A stretch of 50,738 nt of DNA, taken from assembly GCA_030689605.1 (NCBI GenBank), contig JAUYFT010000026.1, positions 1 to 50,738 of the forward strand, read 5' to 3'. Positions 1,480 to 48,961 of the stretch are shown here, one piece after another. A model generated the notes under the pieces. The model did not search any database and was not told the origin of the DNA. It saw only the letters and a list, made by a program, of their open reading frames with translations. How positions within the stretch are numbered: position 1 is the first letter of the stretch; each line of letters begins with the position of its first letter. Source of the DNA: a bacterium. Lineage in GTDB: Bacteria; Patescibacteriota; Patescibacteriia; PEXW01. The translations under genes were made by a program, and so were the position numbers.

Positions 1480-4920
<3,441 letters not shown>

Positions 4921-5182: not shown

Positions 5183-5211
5183 AACGTACAAGGAACCCCC
5201 GCCCCTGTCAA
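5183..5211 (-). promoter_or_regulatory. Candidate promoter in the rpoB upstream region, bracketed by two DnaA boxes
   Basis: Minus strand reads TTGACA (5211-5206), 17-nt spacer, TACGTT (5188-5183). Confidence 0.45.
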
Positions 5212-5221
5212 GCCTAGGGGG

Positions 5222-5230
5222 TGTGGATAA
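5222..5230 (-). promoter_or_regulatory. Perfect DnaA-box 9-mer TTATCCACA (minus strand)
   Basis: Plus strand reads TGTGGATAA. It lies exactly 10 nt upstream of the TTGACA at 5211-5206. Confidence 0.6.
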
Positions 5231-5269
5231 CTTCTGGTTCACAAAATACCCGCCCTTTGCGGCGCAACC

Positions 5270-6592
5270 TCACCGTTGCATTGTTGCCCAAACTTCTTTC
5301 AGGACTACACGGTCATCCCACGGTATAAGTTTTCCATTCGCAACGGCCATAACCTCTTCCCCGCCTTTACCCGTCAGGAGTAGCACATCACCCGCCTGCC
5401 CGAGCTGGAGGAGCTTTGCAATTGCCGCCCGCCGGTCGGTAATGCGGCTGATATTCGCTTTGCCTATTGCTTCGGCGGCCGTGGCAACGTCGGCAATTAT
5501 TTTCTCTGGATCCTCATCGTATGGGTCTTCATTCGTGACGACGACGACATCTGCATGTTCGGCAGCAAGTGCGCCCATCACGCTCCGCTTGGCATGGTCG
5601 CGCCCGCCGCCTTGCGCACCGAGTAACGTTAGGAGGCGCTTCGGTTCGAGTAATCGCACCGCAGCGTACGCCGCCTGCAGGCTCGCGGGTTCATGGCTGT
5701 AGTCGACGAAAACGCGGAACGGCGCGTTGAGTGCCACCTCTTCCATGCGACCAGGTACACCGGGGAAATTCGCCAGCGCAACAGCCGCACGGCTCCGATC
5801 GTAGCCCAGGCCATCCAGCACGGCGAGGGTGGCAAGCGCGTTCTGAACATTGAACGCGCCGAGCAACGGGACAACCCACTGTGCCCCTGCCACCTGGAAG
5901 GTACACTGCGCGGACGTGCAAGCCACCTGCTCTGCGCGCAATATTGCTAAACCCGGGACTGCTTTTACCGAACTGTCCGTTTGGGTGAAGCCTACATGCA
6001 CATCTGCAGCGTGACGGAGGAAAGAGAAAGCGTACGAATCATCAACATTCGCGGCGATGACGGTGGGAATTTTCTTTCCATTTAGGGTCTTCCGCCATGG
6101 CCGGTTTAGGCTGCTAAAAAGGCGCTCCTTCGCTTCGCGGTACATGCGGAAACTGCCGTGGCTCTCCACATGCTCGGGCGTAAGGTTTAGGAACACTGCC
6201 GCGTCGAACGCAATGCCAAGGTGGCGCCCTTGGGCTAACCCTTCAGAGGAAACTTCGAGGACGGTGACAGTGCACCCAGCCTTCACTGCACGCGCGAGGA
6301 AGTGTTGCAACTCGCCCCGGCCAGGCATGGTCAACTTGCTCCGGTTTGGCCAGGTCTTGCCGAGCATCCCCCACTGCACCGTGGATGAGAACGCGACGCG
6401 CTCGCCCAGTGCCGTAAGGCAGTGAGCCAGCATTGCGACGGTTGTGGACTTACCCTTCGTCCCGGTCACGCCAATAACCAGGAGCTTCCGCGCGGGCAAC
6501 CCAGCACGGAGTGCAGCCACACGCGCTTCGAGCACGTGGTATGTATTCACTACTCGCTTCGGAACGATTGCTCTAAGGAGGCGTTTGATCAT
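5270..6592 (-). CDS. Mur ligase family protein (MurE-like central and C-terminal domains, short N-terminus)
   Basis: Motifs seen: P-loop GVTGTKGKSTT, DYSHEP, and C-terminal LLGAQGGGRDHAKR...VVVTNEDPYDEDP. The ORF track starts at 6640. ATG 6592 (MIKRLL) forms an ATGA overlap with the stop of the upstream gene, so it is preferred. Confidence 0.8.
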   Translation of the reverse strand: MIKRLLRAIVPKRVVNTYHVLEARVAALRAGLPARKLLVIGVTGTKGKSTTVAMLAHCLTALGERVAFSSTVQWGMLGKTWPNRSKLTMPGRGELQHFLARAVKAGCTVTVLEVSSEGLAQGRHLGIAFDAAVFLNLTPEHVESHGSFRMYREAKERLFSSLNRPWRKTLNGKKIPTVIAANVDDSYAFSFLRHAADVHVGFTQTDSSVKAVPGLAILRAEQVACTSAQCTFQVAGAQWVVPLLGAFNVQNALATLAVLDGLGYDRSRAAVALANFPGVPGRMEEVALNAPFRVFVDYSHEPASLQAAYAAVRLLEPKRLLTLLGAQGGGRDHAKRSVMGALAAEHADVVVVTNEDPYDEDPEKIIADVATAAEAIGKANISRITDRRAAIAKLLQLGQAGDVLLLTGKGGEEVMAVANGKLIPWDDRVVLKEVWATMQR

Positions 6593-9511: not shown

Positions 9512-9639
9512 AGTTTGTATCAGCAGTATACCCCAACCTCACGCCTTGTCACGACGCTTGGGGGGTAAAGTACTTTTCCCCTTTCAGTCCCGATTTTTCC
9601 GAAATCTCCGATTTCGTGAAAAATCGAGGATCCCGCACC

Positions 9640-10971
9640 CTATGTGGTGCGGGACTTCTTAGGTTTAAAGTAAATTTGCCCTTTTAGTTTTGCTGGTAGA
9701 TATTCCTGTTGGCCGGCGGCTGGCGAGTAGTCATGCGAGTACTTGTAGTCCTTGCCATAGTTCAAGTCTTGCATGAGGTCGGTTACGGCGTTGCGGAGAT
9801 GGAGCGGCACGGGTGCATTCATAGTGTCTTTTACGTCTTTCTTCGCTGCTAGTAAGCCGGTGTAGGCCGTGTTGTTTTTCGGGGCGAGCGCCAAGTAGAC
9901 CACGCCATGCGCCAAGCTGATCTGGCATTCAGGATAACCAATAAGCTTCACCGCATTGAATACGGCGACGGCGAGTTGCAGCGCTTGCGGATCAGCTAAG
10001 CCGATGTCTTCGGAGGCAAACACGACCATGCGTCGGGCAATGAACTCGGGGTCCTCCCCGGCTTCCACCATGCGGTTTAGCCAGTACAGCGCCCCATCAG
10101 GATTAGACCCGCGCATACTCTTGATAAAGGCCGAAATGACGTTGTAGTGCTCTTCCCCGTGCTTGTCGTACTGCAAAGCTTTGTGCTGGAGGGCGTCTTC
10201 CATGTCAGTTAGGCTGACATGCTTCACATCATCTGTGTCTTTGACCGCGGCTTTCACACCGATCTCCAAGGCGTTAAGAACGGTACGCGCGTCACCGTTA
10301 CCAGCACTCATCAGCAGATCCATCGCTTTAGCAGCAATCTTCACTTTCTCTCTCCCCAGGCCTACAACTTTGTCCGTTAGCGCCCGCTTCACAATCTTGC
10401 TAAGCTCGGGTACGCCCAAGCGCTTAAGCACGAAGATACGTGAGCGGGAGAGGAGTGGCGAAATAATTTCGAATGAAGGATTCTCCGTGGTCGCACCGAT
10501 GAGAACGACAGTTCCATTTTCGACGGCGGGAAGGAATGCGTCCTGCTGGGCTTTGTTCCACCGGTGGATTTCATCTACGAAAAGTACCGTGCGCTCGCCG
10601 TGGAACTTTCGCCGCTCGCCTGCCTGTTCCACCACCCGCCGCAGATCCGCAATCCCACTCGTCACCGCCGACATTTGCTCGTAGTGCGACTTGGTGAGGT
10701 TGGCAATGATGCGCGCCAGGGTGGTCTTGCCACTGCCCGGCGGCCCCCAGAAGATGATAGAGAAGAGTTCGTCGTTCTCAATCGCCTTGCGGAGTAACTT
10801 CCCTTCACCAATAATGTCCTCTTGCCCGACGTAGTCTTCCAGCTTCATAGGCCGCAGCCGGTCGGCGAGCGGCACGAAGCGGGCGACATCGTGACTGACG
10901 CGCTGGTCAAAGAGGTCGGGGGTAGTAGACCGTTTTGCCATAGGTAGGAGCATTGTACTCCTCGTGGGCAT
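9640..10971 (-). CDS. rarA: Replication-associated recombination protein A (AAA+ ATPase)
   Basis: Walker A GPPGSGKTT, Walker B VLFVDEIHRWNKAQQD, and MgsA C-terminal block HYNVISAFIKSMRGSNPDGALYWL. The start is ambiguous: ATG 10971, or ATG 10953, which is preceded by GAGGAG. Confidence 0.9.
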   Translation of the reverse strand: MPTRSTMLLPMAKRSTTPDLFDQRVSHDVARFVPLADRLRPMKLEDYVGQEDIIGEGKLLRKAIENDELFSIIFWGPPGSGKTTLARIIANLTKSHYEQMSAVTSGIADLRRVVEQAGERRKFHGERTVLFVDEIHRWNKAQQDAFLPAVENGTVVLIGATTENPSFEIISPLLSRSRIFVLKRLGVPELSKIVKRALTDKVVGLGREKVKIAAKAMDLLMSAGNGDARTVLNALEIGVKAAVKDTDDVKHVSLTDMEDALQHKALQYDKHGEEHYNVISAFIKSMRGSNPDGALYWLNRMVEAGEDPEFIARRMVVFASEDIGLADPQALQLAVAVFNAVKLIGYPECQISLAHGVVYLALAPKNNTAYTGLLAAKKDVKDTMNAPVPLHLRNAVTDLMQDLNYGKDYKYSHDYSPAAGQQEYLPAKLKGQIYFKPKKSRTT

Positions 10972-17707: not shown

Positions 17708-17939
17708 ACAGACCGATATAGTAACTGTCCTGTATCTACAGCCCGACCCTTACACGGCCGGGCTTTACTTTTTCTCTGGGGTTCCCGACGGTGCGGCGCG
17801 CAGGAGCGAAGCGATGAGCACGCGCCGTTGGGGTAAAGCGAGGCTTTCCTGCCGTACGGCGGGAAAACGAACTGCCCCGAACCACTCGCTTCGCTCGGGT
17901 ACAGGGCATGCACCAAAAGTTCTCTTTAGAGATGGCGTG

Positions 17940-17994
17940 CCATGCACCCGAACAGCACCGGCCTATAGGACGGTGCGTCGTGAGTGGTGCATGG
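17940..17994 (-). other. Conserved tRNA 3'-trailer hairpin (tRNA-Arg copy) that pairs with the CCA end
   Basis: CCATGCACC (17940-48) pairs with GGTGCATGG (17986-94), and 17992-94 is the encoded CCA. It is homologous to 45170-45201. Confidence 0.7.
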
Positions 17995-18068
17995 TGCGCC
18001 CGGCAGGAGTTGAACCTGCGACCTTATGGACCGGAACCATACGCTCTATCCAGCTGAGCTACGGGCGC
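17992..18068 (-). tRNA. tRNA-Arg (anticodon CCG), CCA encoded
   Basis: The reverse complement GCGCCCGTAGCTCAGCTGGATAGAGCGTATGGTTCCGGTCCATAAGGTCGCAGGTTCAACTCCTGCCGGGCGCACCA folds as a cloverleaf. Anticodon loop is TTCCGGT. Confidence 0.9.
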
Positions 18069-44618: not shown

Positions 44619-44978
44619 ATGAAACTCAATCGCAAACTCATCGCTGGTGCAGCGTCAATCGCGACGCTCGTTATCCCGGCAATCGCCTCTGCTGCGGTTA
44701 CAATCGAGAACGTCGGTGGCTCCCTAGGCCTCGGCTCGGCTGACCTCAAGCAGACCGTCCTTAACATTATCACCTTCGTGCTCGGTCTCCTCGGCCTCAT
44801 CGCCGTCATCATGATCCTGTACGGTGGCTTTATCTGGCTCACCGCGGGTGGCAACGAAGACAAAGTCGACCAAGCCAAGAAGATCATCTCGGCTGCGGCC
44901 GTCGGTCTCGTCGTCATTCTGGTCTCCTGGGCCATCGTCAACTTCGTCATTGGTTCCACTCGGAACGTAACGACCTAG
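44619..44978 (+). CDS. T4SS-pilin-like small membrane protein, copy 2 (tandem paralog)
   Basis: Roughly three quarters or more identical to copy 1 by eye over the mature part. ATG 44619 is preceded by AAGGGGGG. Confidence 0.68.
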   Translation: MKLNRKLIAGAASIATLVIPAIASAAVTIENVGGSLGLGSADLKQTVLNIITFVLGLLGLIAVIMILYGGFIWLTAGGNEDKVDQAKKIISAAAVGLVVILVSWAIVNFVIGSTRNVTT

Positions 44979-45000
44979 TTTCCTTTTCCTGAGAAACTCA

Positions 45001-45036
45001 CCCAGCCCCGCGCGTGCGGGGCTGGTTTTGTTTTTT
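45001..45036 (+). terminator. Rho-independent terminator
   Basis: CCAGCCCCGC-GCGT-GCGGGGCTGG followed by TTTTGTTTTTT. Confidence 0.85.
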
Positions 45037-45169
45037 ATGAATGGGATCCCCGCGAAGTTGGCGGGAACAGCCTGCCCTGAACCAGTCGACCATTGGTCTC
45101 CGATTCAGGGCATGAACCACTTCTCTGACACTCACTTGCTTACGAGTATTGACGAATTTTTCTGGCTCG

Positions 45170-45201
45170 CCATGAACCCGAACGAAGTGAGTGGTTCATG
45201 G
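45170..45201 (-). other. Conserved tRNA 3'-trailer hairpin (tRNA-Leu copy)
   Basis: CCATGAACC (45170-78) pairs with GGTTCATGG (45193-201). Flanking blocks GCCATGNACCCGAAC and GTGAGTGGTNCATGGTGC are shared with the Arg copy. Confidence 0.7.
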
Positions 45202-45283
45202 TGCCCAGGAGAGGACTCGAACCTCCACGCCTTGCGGCACGAGGTCCTAAACCTCGCGTGTATACCAATTTCACCACCTGGGC
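45199..45283 (-). tRNA. tRNA-Leu (anticodon UAG), long variable arm, CCA encoded
   Basis: Reverse complement is GCCCAGGTGGTGAAATTGGTATACACGCGAGGTTTAGGACCTCGTGCCGCAAGGCGTGGAGGTTCGAGTCCTCTCCTGGGCACCA. Anticodon loop is TTTAGGA. Confidence 0.9.
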
Positions 45284-45289
45284 TTAAAT

Positions 45290-45544
45290 TTATATATTTT
45301 GTAAAGTGAACTTCAACATTGCCCGTAACGTATATTTCCCCTTGCTGGATTTTAAATACCTTTCTCTTTTTTCGGCGTCTAACTTATTGTTAAAGGCCTC
45401 GTAAAAAATCAGCTTCACCGGCAATCTATTTTTCGTAAATGGACTCTTCCCTTTCTTGTGTTCAGCAAGCCTCCTTTTCAAGTCCAAGGTCATGCCACAG
45501 TAAAGCTGTTTGTTTGATAATTGTAAGATGTAAATATAATGCAT
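45290..45544 (-). CDS. GIY-YIG nuclease-family protein
   Basis: MHYIYILQLSNKQLYCGMTLDLKRRLAEHKKGK...EKRERYLK, strongly AT-rich. ATG 45544 is preferred because the ORF-track GTG start lies in tRNA-derived sequence. Confidence 0.75.
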   Translation of the reverse strand: MHYIYILQLSNKQLYCGMTLDLKRRLAEHKKGKSPFTKNRLPVKLIFYEAFNNKLDAEKRERYLKSSKGKYTLRAMLKFTLQNI

Positions 45545-45549
45545 ATTTT

Positions 45550-45631
45550 GCGCGTATACCACCCAGCACCACTAAAGGGTGCTGGGTAGCCATGAACCTT
45601 TAGTGGTTCATGGCAATTTCACCACCTGGGC
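45550..45631 (-). pseudogene. tRNA-Leu 5' fragment (about positions 1-30) interrupted by a 52-nt double hairpin
   Basis: 45614-45631 is identical to 45266-45283 (tRNA positions 1-18). 45550-45561 (GCGCGTATACCA) matches 45255-45267 apart from a 2-nt indel. The insert spans 45562-45613. Confidence 0.75.
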
Positions 45632-45661
45632 ATAGCCCTAGCCTACCCACCCCGCCTCCTC

Positions 45662-45690
45662 TTGACAAGGGAAAGCCAGGTCGGTATACT
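45662..45690 (+). promoter_or_regulatory. Near-consensus sigma-70 promoter upstream of the 23S rRNA
   Basis: TTGACA (45662-67), 17-nt spacer, TATACT (45685-90). Confidence 0.65.
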
Positions 45691-46727
45691 CCCTCTCGCT
45701 AGTTACGGAGGTTTCTTCTCTGACCCCGCACCCTGCATGTGTAACTCTATCCTTAATTCCGAAGGCCAAGGCGGCTAACACACGTCCCTATTTTTGGAAC
45801 CGGTGTCGTCCCGCCCCAAGCCGCGGGATTTTTGTTTCCCAGCAGAGGCCGTCCTGAGCGTAAGTCGAAGGATCCCTCTGGCGAGAAGCCCACAGCAGCT
45901 CGAACGTTACCAACTGCATAGTGCACGAACATGAATGTATAAGAAAGGTAACGAATAAGCATAAGTAAGTTAGTCTCGGAAATTTCCACACGGTAAGCTG
46001 CAGCCGCAGCGAAGCGTGTCGGACCGTTTCTGGAGACGGGTGACGACCGGTCCGCGCTCAACGTTGATGCGCGCGTGCCATGGTCGCCGCACAAGGGCGT
46101 ACGGTGGATGCCTTGGTACAATATGGCGATGAAGGACGTCGCAGCCTGCGAAAAGCTCCGGGGAGGTGGCAAGCAACCTTTGATCCGGAGATATCCGAAT
46201 GGGGAAACCCTCTACACGGAATGGTGTAGAACGCTATCCTGAATACATAGGGGTAGTGAGCGAACCTGGGGAATTGAAACATCTTAGTACCCAGAGGAAG
46301 AGAAAAAAATGCTGCAGTTATTTGAACAGTGCATCAGCAATGGTGCGCGGTTCATATTCCTGTGGTTATTCCCTGAGTAGTGGCGAGCGAAACGGGAACA
46401 GCTAAAATTTTCGTAGTGTACCCAGCCGCAAGGTTGGGAGAGACGCGTAAGCGGCTGCTACGGAGACGTTGCGAGATGATGTTATCAGAGCTTACGACTC
46501 TGAGGTAGGGACCACGCGGAGTGGTTCTCGGTGTGCCTGCGCAAGCGGGTACAGTGAGAATTATTTCGTTGCGCGTAGTCGAACCGCCTGGAACGGCGGG
46601 CCAAAGACGGTGATAGCCCGGTAGGCGAAACGCGCGAAGCTCTACGACATTTTTCTCGAGTACCGTGGGACACGTGAAATCCTATGGGAACCCGGGACGA
46701 CTACCGTCCCAAAGCTAAATACATATT

Positions 46728-48197: not shown

Positions 48198-48961
48198 TAA
48201 CGACGCTACCGCCACTCATGAAATGGGTGGCAAAAAAGTCAGGGCGATTGTAAAATTCGACTATATGCTGGAATAGCTGTCCCCTCACAGGGGTGAAGTA
48301 TCGTGTGCTACCGAGTAGGTAACAATGCACACGTGCAGCCAATCAGCAGGAAAGACTCCCTAGAATATGCCAAATACCGTGAAAGCAATCCTGACTTCCT
48401 TTCGGGGAAAACGGGAGTTGCTCCACTACTATATTGCGGGACTCGTGGATGGTGAAGGCAGTTTCAGTGTGGCGGTTATCCGCCATCCTTCTCAAACATT
48501 TGGCTGGATGATTAATCCATGCTTCCAAGTGTACCAACACGAAGCACACCGTGAAATTCTTGAACTTTGCCAGTGGGTATTTAAAACCGGCAGCATCTAC
48601 CGCAAGTCTGGGACTAACCATGTTCTGAACTTCAGTATTGATGCTCGCCGCAATCTCTTGGAGAAGGTTATCCCCTTCTTCGACCGGTACCCGCTCATCG
48701 TAAAGCGCGATGCCTATAAATCGTTCCGCACGATTACGAAAGCCATGGAACAAGGCGAGCATCAAACCCGCGAGGGTTTCTGCCGCTTGGTAACGCTGGC
48801 TTTCACGATGAACCAGCAAGGCAAAGGGCGAAAGCATACCCTCGAGTACATCCTCGAGTCGGTAAAAAGTGCTCATGGAGAATCCTCAGAGACTTTACGT
48901 CGAACCCCGCAGGGGCGGGGATGATAAAGTCCACGACCGTAGCGATACGGGTTAGAAAAAG
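48198..48961 (+). mobile_element. Group-I-like intron in 23S at E. coli position ~1923/1924 (H69 3' strand)
   Basis: Exon 1 ends AACTATAATCGT and exon 2 starts CCTAAGGTAGCGAAATTCC. Joining them restores H69 (GGCGA/TCGTC). Exon 1 ends in U and the insert ends in G. AGG-GCGATT (48241-49) can pair with exon 2 CCT (P10) and exon 1 AATCGT (P1, with a U.G pair). Confidence 0.72.
48367..48924 (+). CDS. LAGLIDADG homing endonuclease (single-motif type)
   Basis: YIAGLVDGEGSF motif. It is 185 aa and lies wholly inside the 23S insertion. Confidence 0.88.
   Translation: MPNTVKAILTSFRGKRELLHYYIAGLVDGEGSFSVAVIRHPSQTFGWMINPCFQVYQHEAHREILELCQWVFKTGSIYRKSGTNHVLNFSIDARRNLLEKVIPFFDRYPLIVKRDAYKSFRTITKAMEQGEHQTREGFCRLVTLAFTMNQQGKGRKHTLEYILESVKSAHGESSETLRRTPQGRG

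Follow-up and report, generated by a model that had tools for sequence, protein, structure and literature searches.

In a 50,738-nucleotide stretch of DNA from a Patescibacteria (CPR) bacterium, the whole of which is referred to below as the window, a gene for a small GIY-YIG nuclease lies on the minus strand between an intact tRNA-Leu gene and a second, hairpin-interrupted copy of the 5' part of the same tRNA. This arrangement raises the question of how a nuclease gene came to be placed inside a tRNA gene while a complete tRNA gene was retained. All six elements that a first-pass annotation of the locus had described were recovered on the minus strand in the same positions, and we analyzed them together with related loci (L numbers).

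Architecture of the tRNA-Leu locus and its empty allele

The intact tRNA-Leu(UAG) gene extends over positions 45199..45283 (minus strand, as for all features given below); it was confirmed with ARAGORN and the Rfam tRNA model (55.9 bits) and has the same sequence as its counterpart in the empty allele described below. The leader, or 5' relic (45614..45631), proved to be identical to tRNA-Leu nt 1-18, as had been claimed, and occupies the position of the tRNA start in the empty allele. Repeat analysis recovered a direct repeat (D1) of 21 nt at 95% identity with a spacing of 348 nt, and the arithmetic expectation of an 18-nt exact direct repeat arising by chance within 900 nt is ~6e-6. A 52-nt insert consisting of two hairpins (45613..45562) separates the relic from a short tRNA-like bit (45550..45561, TGGTATACGCGC; repeat D4). 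This post-insert fragment of the tRNA is indeed present, with one mismatch to the tRNA itself (TGGTATACACGC); it corresponds to raw tRNA nt 17-28 (nt ~19-30 in the first-pass annotation), so that TG flanks the insert on both sides. A GCGC variant of the bit is common to the window, L001 and L002, and the bit is drifted or shortened in L005, L173 and L174. The GIY-YIG nuclease gene (45290..45544, ATG at 45544 and stop at 45290) ends 6 nt ahead of tRNA nt +1.

A putative promoter of the original tRNA gene (45640..45668) now stands ahead of relic, cassette and tRNA. It is composed of a -35 element TTGTCA (45668-45663), a 17-nt spacer and a -10 element TAGGCT (45645-45640) located 8 nt before tRNA nt +1, a layout that is kept in the empty allele L170 (TTGTCA-17-TAGTCT) as well as in L001 and L002 (TTGTCA-17-TAGTTT). 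We infer promoter function here, since the -10 element is too weak for a consensus scan. Between relic and intact tRNA, the promoter/terminator scan detected neither a promoter nor a terminator on the minus strand, and Rfam searches of the whole window at the gathering threshold and of 44900-46100 at E up to 10 returned only tRNA, 23S and 5S, the leader matching no Rfam family in the latter search.

An empty site, for which a comparison with related genomes had been suggested, was found in L170 and L171, two close relatives from independent samples in which promoter, tRNA-Leu(UAG) and pilin neighbor agree with those of the window and both the hairpins and the nuclease gene are absent (pilin 97% and upstream spacer 92% identical to the window). 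In blastn, L170 3558-3645 corresponds to window 45199-45286 and L170 3625-4157 to window 45614-46156, and the upstream flank of the window (..gggctat|GCCC) aligns with that of L170 (..ggactat|GCCC). The extra 348 bp relative to L170 occupy 45266..45613, which can equally be written as 45284-45631 because of the 18-nt repeat. At this one site, the window, L001 and L002 are filled and L170 and L171 are empty. As judged from these alignments, a 348-bp cassette is inserted in the D-loop of the tRNA-Leu gene, and an intact tRNA is rebuilt behind it. The empty loci back the proposal, made at first pass, that the locus results from insertion into a tRNA gene, with a 5' relic and an intact tRNA as the outcome, and what we found among related genomes is not an ancestral arrangement devoid of empty sites. 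The insertion point itself, formerly assigned to the junction of D-arm and anticodon stem, is better placed in the D-loop (G18/G19), where the hairpins start, because the hairpin pair belongs to the cassette and is not a later arrival (see below). The empty allele could in principle have arisen by deletion between the 18-nt repeats instead of representing the pre-insertion state. Two further loci (L168 and L169) with a 100% identical pilin were set aside as uninformative, as they carry a different AbiE locus behind the pilin, and the tRNA is absent.

The hairpin pair and the encoded nuclease

Hairpin 1 (45589..45614; inverted repeat I8, 10 bp) is formed by G-CCATGAACC, the loop ACTAAA and GGTTCATGG-C, and hairpin 2 (45561..45587; inverted repeat I9, 10 bp) by (T)A-CCCAGCACC, the loop CTTTAGT and GGTGCTGGG-T(G). 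The two-hairpin fold is the minimum-energy structure of the insert, reaching -22.8 kcal/mol as DNA on either strand (z = -8.0 and -7.3 for the two strands, 0/200 shuffles being equally good), and RNA folding of the entire leader yields z = -4.6. In a comparison of 11 sequences, the ten pairs of hairpin 1 are always paired (10/10), with 6 of them changed on both sides, and 98% of the cells of hairpin 2 are paired, with 5 pairs changed on both sides; compensatory changes affect 11 stem pairs over both hairpins, and 0/500 shuffles reach such pairing and covariation.

The loops of the two hairpins are reverse complements of each other. The complementarity of the loops noticed at first pass is real (ACCACTAAAGG / CCTTTAGTGGT; repeat I2), but extends over 11 nt and not 10; across the family, 7.0 of 10 loop positions are complementary, compared to 3.8 in shuffled loops. 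The refolding into an alternative structure that had been deduced from it is unsupported, as the loop-loop helix shows no covariation. We likewise rejected kissing or refolding of an RNA through the loops, given that double changes do not occur in the loop-loop helix and departures from complementarity are simply unpaired. Since both strands fold equally well, and G:T and A:C stem mismatches are equally frequent (7 vs 8, a test for RNA structure), the data are consistent with the hairpins acting as DNA and not as RNA.

The double hairpin had further been regarded as an independent miniature element that landed in the relic at a later stage. This does not agree with its distribution: the pair travels with the GIY-YIG gene in relatives of 65-95% protein identity, its stems covary, and distant homologues have analogous pairs in other tRNA loops, 8-45 nt ahead of their ATG. 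The relic ends ~5-12 nt past the hairpins in every loop class, and a search for a hairpin pair inside an otherwise complete tRNA found none, in-silico removal of the pair recovering only CCA-end cases. One relative without hairpins (L177) also lacks nt 14-28, and the absence of its hairpins looks like a deletion. Short direct repeats of 2 nt (TG, CG or AA) flank the hairpin pairs.

The encoded protein of 84 aa matches the Pfam GIY-YIG family (PF01541) with 57.2 bits (cut-off 22.6, E = 2e-15), the domain spanning residues 1-70. The ATG at 45544 was used as start codon, the GTG at 45562 given by the ORF finder not being a conserved start. Exact-protein look-up found neither the 90-aa nor the 84-aa product on record, and relatives of the protein were therefore used for comparison. 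In a 52-sequence family alignment, Y15, G17, R25, H29, E49 and E61 are invariant, and Y5 is conserved in at least 90% of the sequences. The best sequence and fold matches are bacterial UPF0213 proteins (YhbQ; BH0048, PDB 1zg2; EF2693, PDB 1ywl) and Slx1, the invariant residues of the family being kept: the family profile matches 1zg2 (4e-13) and 1ywl (3e-12), the AlphaFold model (pLDDT 96.9) forms one compact domain, and Foldseek ranks 1zg2 and 1ywl first, followed by Slx1 (7cq3, 6seh, 4xlg), all above I-TevI. The protein is a stand-alone GIY-YIG catalytic domain of the UPF0213 family with a Slx1-like fold. Slx1 is a eukaryotic structure-specific endonuclease which carries a RING domain and requires Slx4. 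For UPF0213/YhbQ-type GIY-YIG proteins, structures have been available since 2005; our literature searching found neither an established function of bacterial UPF0213 nor a link to tRNA-gene insertions.

The ORF has a GC content of 35.7%, compared to 55.0% for the window, and codon changes between copies are predominantly synonymous (15 synonymous vs 4 non-synonymous, and 36 vs 11). Taken together, the synonymous excess, the invariant residues and the high-confidence model matching UPF0213/Slx1 folds indicate that the GIY-YIG gene is maintained, the codon counts speaking for purifying selection.

Relatives of the cassette and their link to tRNA genes

In relatives with 65-95% protein identity, a tRNA-Leu gene (UAG or UAA) is immediately preceded by relic, hairpin pair, bit and ORF. 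A wider survey, suggested by the first-pass annotation, confirmed that other copies of the GIY-YIG gene adjoin tRNA genes: among 179 homologues, drawn from the best 80 of >500 matches per scan, 57 have a same-strand tRNA start <=60 nt downstream, where ~0.2 would be expected by our estimate from tRNA density, and in 32 of these 57 the first 14 nt of the downstream tRNA are repeated upstream of the ORF. For distant homologues, equivalent hairpin pairs stand upstream of the gene in the D-loop, the anticodon loop or the T-loop of many tRNAs or at their CCA end, these insertion-site classes having been assigned partly by eye.

The duplicate begins exactly at +1 in many different tRNAs, and the ORF stop is located 0-8 nt from tRNA +1 across loci. 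In 7/8 D-loop-clade loci, relic nt 1-18 are those of the local tRNA, though the tRNA sequence varies among these loci; a relic that departs from the adjacent tRNA is found in L002/L003, L177, L009, L089 and L036, the L002 relic being of a GCCCAGG type that is still used by its relatives. One tRNA cluster may hold several copies (L082, L160, L173), relics are stacked in L010, and extra single hairpins occur in other relic loops (L012, L044, L090, L122). Mirror-image cases, in which the segment from the loop to the 3' end is duplicated, are found in L173 and L076, and SpoU methylase genes adjoin the cassette in L004, L174 and L176. A search of 2.9 million viral contigs gave only 1 weak match (27% identity), so that phages are no evident vehicle. 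Going by this distribution, the cassette is a member of a widespread family of tRNA-gene invaders; full-text literature searching found no published description of the arrangement.

Mode of spread and relation to known systems

We consider it probable that the locus harbors a selfish cassette of the homing-endonuclease type that colonizes the single tRNA-Leu(UAG) gene of this bacterium. Such a cassette would comprise the GC-rich inverted-repeat hairpin pair, a short fossil of the tRNA D-arm and the AT-rich gene for the 84-aa Slx1/UPF0213-type nuclease, seated after tRNA nt 18 in the D-loop, with the promoter-proximal 18 nt now a dead relic. A complete tRNA gene is preserved because nt 1-18 are present once more at the distal end of the insert, where they run on into nt 19-85. 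To go by the sequence, the old tRNA promoter would produce one RNA containing relic, hairpins, nuclease mRNA and tRNA, and the tRNA would be freed from this joint transcript by normal end-processing. The cassette may spread in the manner of free-standing homing endonuclease genes: a break in a tRNA gene that lacks it would be repaired from a cassette-bearing copy, with tRNA parts 1-18 and 19-85 as homology arms, which would account for the similarity to L001 spanning relic +1 to the tRNA 3' end. The hairpin pair displays an identical loop motif once per DNA strand and is most likely a DNA structure bound or cut by the nuclease. No DNA-binding domain for long-site specificity was found in the 84 aa, which hold the catalytic domain only, in contrast to the known GIY-YIG homing enzymes. 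The D-loop of the relic is interrupted and the intact tRNA behind the cassette retains the uninterrupted sequence; the usual self-immunity of homing is not evident, because the intact tRNA still carries the presumed target. Moreover, simple homing fails to explain jointly why the relic is that of the local tRNA in most D-loop-clade loci and mismatched elsewhere.

Comparison of the window with L001 bears on how the arrangement is inherited. The unit 45631-45199 is 94% identical between the two (tRNA 85/85), the 23S rRNA 85-88% and the pilin from the L001 contig 68%, and the similarity around the unit starts exactly at relic +1 and stops at the CCA. Being more alike than rRNA and pilin, bounded by relic +1 and CCA, and carrying an ORF of foreign GC, the cassette evidently moves between genomes, and complete tRNA genes seem to be transported with it between distantly related CPR lineages. 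An ancestral and immobile arrangement, inherited vertically, lost in L170/L171 via the 18-nt repeats and with older tRNA fossils as mismatched relics, would draw on the exact L170 sequence that deletion between direct repeats would yield, on the broad synteny of the window, L001 and L002 (23S, then unit, then pilins) and on the retained relic type of L002. It is nonetheless improbable, as the ORF differs at 20/255 positions between window and L001, against 12-15% for 23S rRNA and 32% for the pilin, which is incompatible with vertical descent at host rates, and has its AT-rich composition in a 55% GC genome. Part of the same evidence makes it most unlikely that the locus is a tRNA operon in the service of the host, with a GIY-YIG protein acting on tRNA or tRNA genes (processing, repair or quality control) and the leader as regulatory 5' UTR: presence and absence differ among close relatives, the GC is foreign, the cassette is more alike between genomes than rRNA, relics are decayed or stacked, some copies lack the ORF, the stems show no RNA-type G:U bias, and the leader has no Rfam match. 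What such a reading would explain is the very tight link of the gene family to tRNA genes, the purifying selection on the ORF and the position of the leader at the 5' end of the putative transcript; reported fusions of Slx1-like GIY-YIG domains to tRNA-type methyltransferases (PMC1564403) and the neighboring SpoU methylase genes also point this way.

The remaining alternatives concern the insertion event. Two separate events, a GIY-YIG element entering after ~nt 28 with duplication of nt 1-28 and an unrelated double hairpin later entering the D-loop of the dead copy, would be in line with the resumption of the relic to ~nt 28 beyond the hairpins, and the extra single hairpins and ORF-less hairpin elements suggest that hairpins are able to insert alone. 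We regard this as very unlikely, since the pair is present and covarying in relatives of the window's cassette, keeps its distance from relic end and ATG in every loop class, unlike independent hits, and was not found in a complete tRNA. Transposition guided by DNA structure and accompanied by a long target duplication, in which the relic would be a fresh target-site duplication for each insertion and not a homology arm, is a more serious rival, though on balance we consider it unlikely. Here, the Slx1-like nuclease would cut each strand of an extruded DNA cloverleaf of the tRNA gene once, in a loop and at the base of the acceptor stem, respectively, and fill-in after insertion of the cassette (hairpins, bit and ORF) would duplicate tRNA nt 1..x. 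The exact start of the duplicate at +1 in many tRNAs, the short distance of the ORF stop from +1, the identity of relic and local tRNA in 7/8 D-loop-clade loci, a bit that drifts as if carried along, insertion sites in single-stranded parts of the cloverleaf, the mirror-image duplications, the 2-nt repeats around the hairpin pairs and a fold nearest to the structure-specific Slx1 all speak for it. However, neither a transposase nor a ligase function is encoded, the cassette has no recognizable right end, the mismatched relics (L002, L177, L009, L089, L036) would require a second event, CCA-end copies show short repeats only, and we know of no precedent for target duplications of 18-57 bp. It is doubtful, though conceivable, that UPF0213/Slx1-like mini-nucleases more generally power unrecognized structure-guided mobile elements, which would recognize hairpins or the tRNA cloverleaf, cut at the loop and the acceptor-stem base and insert with 18-57-bp duplications. 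If true, this would provide a function for UPF0213, an account of the non-intron GIY-YIG insertions in CPR rRNA genes and a mode of transposition or homing that spares an essential tRNA.

The homing-type cassette may be compared to phage genes such as T4 segB, which lies in a tRNA gene cluster (PMC2330249): both are GIY-YIG nuclease genes among or inside tRNA genes without an intron ribozyme, and free-standing GIY-YIG homing genes of this kind are, like the cassette, presence/absence polymorphic and spread with flanking sequence. SegB-type enzymes, however, have ~200 aa or more with DNA-binding domains and reside in phages, whereas the cassette encodes a bare 84-aa catalytic domain of the Slx1/UPF0213 branch, is hosted by the chromosomes of CPR and other bacteria and, unlike segB, has a conserved double hairpin and sits inside a tRNA gene beside a duplicated tRNA 5' part. 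Insertion sequences with GIY-YIG ORFs that are neither group I nor group II introns have been described at the tops or bases of stem-loops in CPR rRNA genes (PMC11270868), sharing with the cassette the host group and the non-intron GIY-YIG ORF in a structural RNA gene; that study deals with rRNA genes only, tRNA not figuring in its main text, and neither a hairpin pair nor a regenerating duplication is reported in it. Group I/II introns or an IStron were rejected for the present locus, with no intron or ribozyme family in 44900-46100 at E up to 10 and only 87 nt before and 6 nt after the ORF.

tRNA genes are well known as landing sites for integrase-type islands and prophages, which resemble the cassette in targeting a tRNA gene, in keeping its function by partial duplication and in leaving a tRNA fragment as direct repeat. 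Those islands are kilobases in size, encode a tyrosine or serine recombinase and duplicate the tRNA 3' part, whereas the cassette duplicates the 5' part (nt 1-18), measures 348 bp, is co-oriented with the tRNA and is apparently transcribed from its promoter. A tRNA-targeting integrative element was rejected, since there is no recombinase, the GIY-YIG gene is the only ORF in the 348-bp insert, and the duplicate is nt 1-18. The invader described here is far smaller, with ~350 bp, one 84-aa nuclease and one double hairpin, and would enter the tRNA gene at its loops, the gene being kept alive by a 5' and not a 3' duplication. It also gives UPF0213 a concrete context, as a bacterial Slx1 relative tied to a defined DNA structure; should the nuclease be structure-specific for hairpin or cloverleaf DNA, it could serve as a very small new reagent. 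For annotation, the 5' tRNA fragments and tRNA-like leaders left by the cassette will mislead gene-finding programs and surveys of tRNA fragments.

REPIN/RAYT systems, and likewise the double-hairpin elements or GC clusters of mitochondria, are multicopy, GC-rich palindromic doublets with or without a nuclease gene, and they undergo compensatory change; shortness, GC-richness, many copies and conserved hairpins are shared with the cassette. RAYTs belong to the HUH transposases and REPINs lack tRNA specificity; the mitochondrial elements have no dedicated nuclease gene and no specificity for tRNA loops. A REPIN/RAYT assignment was rejected as the associated gene encodes a GIY-YIG protein and not an HUH (IS200/IS605-like) transposase. 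A classical MITE or IS transposon was also discarded: hairpins are confined to the left end, the insert closes on the right with the stop codon of the ORF, 6 nt short of the tRNA, and the flanking repeat has 18 nt.

The window additionally holds tRNA-associated hairpin elements without an ORF. One of these (45052..45201; inverted repeats I3, I11 and I12) begins at the CCA end of the tRNA-Leu, is absent from L170/L171 and L001, and aligns over its full length with GIY-YIG gene leaders in L058, L147, L145 and L126. A further ORF-less copy of this CCA-end element (17870..17994, minus strand) is located behind tRNA-Arg(CCG) (17992-18068).

Insertion into a tRNA-Leu gene

On the minus strand, an exact copy of tRNA-Leu nucleotides 1–18 (hereafter the relic, 45631-45614) is followed by a 52-nt insert made of two 10-bp hairpins (45613-45562), a short tRNA-like piece, TGGTATACGCGC, corresponding to tRNA nucleotides 17–28 with one mismatch (45561-45550), an AAAAT spacer (45549-45545), a GIY-YIG ORF of 84 codons (45544-45290, stop included), a 6-nt spacer (45289-45284) and the complete tRNA-Leu(UAG) (45283-45199). 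Every item of this arrangement listed in the first-pass annotation was recovered at its minus-strand position, and the complementarity it claimed for the hairpin loops is exact, the apical 11 nt of hairpins 1 and 2 being perfect reverse complements. The locus is bordered by a divergent 23S rRNA gene on one side and two T4SS-type pilin genes on the other, and the GC content of the ORF is 35.7%, compared to 55.0% for the window. The names attached to homologues indicate a Patescibacteria/CPR bacterium as host.

Using the neighbouring pilin gene, we found two loci from different samples, L170 and L171, in which the pilin is 97% and the upstream spacer 92% identical to the window. Both read ...TTGTCA-17-TAGTCT-ttaggactat|GCCCAGGTGGTGAAATTGGTATACACGC...CACCA, with promoter and tRNA-Leu as in the window and no extra sequence separating them; the empty site that the first-pass annotation had suggested seeking in related genomes is present in both. 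Relative to these loci, the window contains 348 extra bases flanked by an 18-nt repeat, and the original tRNA-start position beside the promoter is now taken by the relic. This 348-bp segment is an insertion into the tRNA-Leu gene. Filled sites are found in independent assemblies (the window and the related loci L001, L002 and L003), which excludes an assembly artefact.

A nuclease and hairpin cassette specific for tRNA loops

Protein-profile scans of genome and metagenome collections (best 80 of more than 500 matches each) yielded at least 160 more loci. The first-pass annotation had proposed checking whether other copies of the ORF are tRNA-adjacent: a same-strand tRNA gene (Leu, Ser, Gln, Tyr, Arg, Asn, Glu, Lys, Ala or Gly) begins no more than 60 nt past the ORF in 57 of the 179 protein matches listed, and in 32 of these 57 the first 14 nt of the tRNA are repeated upstream of the ORF. 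Among these matches, the upstream copy runs from nucleotide +1 to a loop, receives the hairpin pair there, continues for about 5–12 nt and ends, the ATG following 8–45 nt after the hairpins. The D-loop, anticodon loop and T-loop all serve as such sites (classes assigned partly by eye), and many other homologues listed lie behind a complete tRNA, with hairpins beginning at the CCA end. A hairpin pair interrupting an otherwise complete tRNA was not found among the loci listed. One tRNA cluster can hold several cassettes, relics are stacked in L010, and ORF-less copies occur in L010, in L173 and as the CCA-end elements of the window itself. The hosts listed span many CPR classes and, by MAG label, Omnitrophota, Planctomycetota, Verrucomicrobiota, Nitrospirae, Lentisphaerae, Cloacimonadaceae and others. 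Taken together, the cassette family is specific for tRNA loops.

The cassette is conserved: all relatives at 65–95% protein identity (L001, L002/3, L004-6, L007, L008, L173 and L174-6) share the order relic, hairpin 1, hairpin 2, tRNA-like piece, ORF and tRNA-Leu, the latter being UAG or UAA. Either DNA strand reaches its minimum energy in the two-hairpin fold (z about -8). Across 11 aligned hairpin pairs, the stems are 100% and 98% paired, pairing is lost when the partners are slid, and both sides have changed in 11 of the 20 stem pairs, a value matched by none of 500 shuffles; the loops are conserved in sequence without covariation. Among the matches listed, complementary loops are the general rule: the best 10-nt loop window has 7.0 complementary positions, versus 3.8 in shuffled loops, and at least 8 of 10 positions are complementary in 50% of pairs, versus 0.3%. 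The simplest reading of these sequences is a two-fold symmetric pair of hairpins presenting one loop motif once per DNA strand, rather than an RNA kissing complex of the loops, for which covariation gives no support. Stem mismatches across the family, 7 of G:T and 8 of A:C type, give no sign that a single RNA strand is under selection.

Two adjoining hairpins, CGATTTTTC...GAAAAATCG and TCCCGCACC-ctatgtg-GTGCGGGA, are also found at 9591-9655 (plus strand), in the gap after a 443-aa gene (9640-10971). The second is similar to hairpin 2 in the cassette of L008; together they may represent a lone hairpin pair or simply a terminator.

The ORF product (Pfam GIY-YIG, E = 2e-15) is an 84-aa, single-domain nuclease, with no DNA-binding domain. 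Its family profile matches the UPF0213 proteins BH0048 and EF2693, and its AlphaFold model (pLDDT 96.9) fits these best, followed by Slx1 and the I-TevI catalytic domain. Across the family alignment, the hallmark Tyr, Tyr-x-Gly, Arg, His and Glu residues never vary, and between copies synonymous codon changes predominate over non-synonymous ones (15 to 4 and 36 to 11); the nuclease gene is therefore kept functional, intact and under selection. As Slx1 cleaves branched DNA and stem-loops in a structure-specific manner, the hairpin pair beside the ORF, or the tRNA gene itself with its cloverleaf-forming sequence, is the obvious candidate substrate. Slx1-like GIY-YIG domains have been described fused to TrmH (Gm18) and COG4123 methyltransferases (PMC1564403), and in one lineage a SpoU/TrmH-type methylase gene lies directly upstream of a D-loop-class cassette (L004 2304-2756; L174 1949-2413; L176 942-1406). 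The nuclease family may be functionally linked to tRNA loops.

Horizontal movement and its possible mechanism

The cassette moves horizontally. Identity of the 23S rRNA to that of the window is 85–88% in L001 and similar in L002, and the pilins on the same contigs are 68% and 70% identical, whereas the unit 45631-45199 is 94% identical in L001 and 80% in L002. The ORF differs at 20 of 255 nt in L001 and is 77% identical in L002; the tRNA is identical (85/85) in the former and clearly different in the latter. Similarity between L001 and the window starts exactly at relic +1 and ends at CCA. Because an AT-rich coding gene is far more similar than the rRNA, and because the much closer L170 has the empty allele, these comparisons argue for recent horizontal acquisition.

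The putative tRNA promoter (-35 at 45668-45663, -10 at 45645-45640) is conserved in L170, L001 and L002, and a minus-strand scan found no promoter or terminator between relic and tRNA. Judging from the sequence, this old promoter would transcribe relic, hairpins, ORF and tRNA together, and the usual end-processing enzymes would then release the tRNA. In the most likely scheme, the nuclease would break cassette-free tRNA genes, the hairpin pair probably acting as the docking or cleavage structure, and the break would be repaired from a cassette-bearing copy with tRNA nucleotides 1–18 and 19–85 as arms, which would explain the exact limits of similarity to L001.

Several observations do not sit well with this scheme. 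In every case the duplicate starts at tRNA +1, with the ORF stop 0–8 nt away, and the tRNA-like piece behind the hairpins is carried along, drifting between loci. Plain homing predicts a clash between the donor 5' part and the recipient 3' part, and a cassette bringing its own relic predicts foreign relics everywhere; yet among the closest relatives with hairpins in the D-loop, relic nucleotides 1–18 equal the local tRNA in seven of eight loci, although these tRNAs differ from each other. A long staggered cut, at the loop and at the acceptor-stem base, would explain both the +1 boundary and the local relics, but needs later events for L002/3, L177, L009, L089 and L036, where the relic is unlike the adjoining tRNA, and to our knowledge such a cut is without precedent. 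Duplications running from the T-loop to the 3' end in L173 and L076 are mirror images of that in the window, so the phenomenon is symmetric.

In L173 (1434-2145), a complete tRNA-Gly(UCC) is followed by a 23-nt flank, a hairpin pair, a 3' relic and a GIY-YIG ORF, with an ORF-less repeat of the same unit in between; the relic extends from the T-loop to the end and has a CCA not encoded by the gene itself. L076 (1110-1500) and L145 (1300-1500) form a close pair: in L145, tRNA-Ala is directly followed by a CCA-end element and GIY gene, and L076 carries an additional 147 nt that include a terminator-like hairpin, then an 18-nt tRNA 3'-end repeat (ATCCGGTACGGTCCACCA), its loop-to-3'-end duplication mirroring the 5' duplication of the window.

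Related systems and other elements of the locus

The cassette is best classed among selfish nuclease cassettes. It comes nearest to three kinds: GIY-YIG homing endonuclease genes of the free-standing type such as T4 SegB, which sits within a tRNA cluster (PMC2330249); islands with integrases in tRNA genes; and the non-intron GIY-YIG insertions described from CPR rRNA genes (PMC11270868), possibly an instance of this phenomenon in a different RNA gene. Each lacks the full combination of a bare Slx1-like domain, conserved double hairpin, tRNA-loop insertion and regenerating 5' duplication. No published description of the hairpin/GIY-YIG/tRNA arrangement was found in the literature searched, and a novel mechanism is a genuine possibility.

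Behind each of the window's two tRNAs, Leu-UAG and Arg-CCG, an ORF-less hairpin element of about 130–150 nt begins at the CCA (45052-45201 and 17870-17994, minus strand). The element consists of CCATGNACC-ACTCAC...GGGTNCATGG followed by xGCCA, a spacer and GCCCTGNACC...GGTNCNGGGC, and it aligns end to end with the GIY-YIG gene leaders of L058, L147, L145 and L126; the copy behind tRNA-Leu is missing from L170/L171 and L001. A third repeat family behind tRNA genes (...AAGCCTCGCTTnACCCCAA...GTGCTC.TCGCTTCGCTC...TTGGGG) occurs after the tRNA-Arg element (17780-17850, minus strand), in L170 (3440-3520, minus strand) and in L001 (about 5190-5300).

In L168/L169 (3393-6393), the pilin is 100% identical to that of the window and, behind it, an HTH gene and AbiEii/AbiEi pair replace tRNA-Leu, cassette and 23S gene; similarity to the window runs out near 45033, slightly short of the CCA-end element, whose inner edge is at 45052. 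In L001, a 1.8-kb segment with class II tRNA-synthetase-like and methyltransferase genes lies between 23S gene and cassette, flanked by two copies of a ~45-nt promoter segment (2800-2848 and 4642-4690; ACTATTGTCAAGAG..GATTAAAAGATAG).

The 23S rRNA gene of the window, over 3847 nt of which the 2925-position Rfam model aligns, contains a 764-nt insertion (48198-48961), absent from L001 and L002, whose ORF (48367-48924, plus strand) encodes a LAGLIDADG endonuclease (PF00961, E = 3.6e-18). Facing this gene is a strong sigma-70-type promoter, TTGACA-17-TATACT (11/12 matches; 45662-45690, plus strand), whose -35 overlaps the opposite-strand -35 (TTGTCA) of the tRNA/cassette transcript, a compact divergent pair that is kept in L170.
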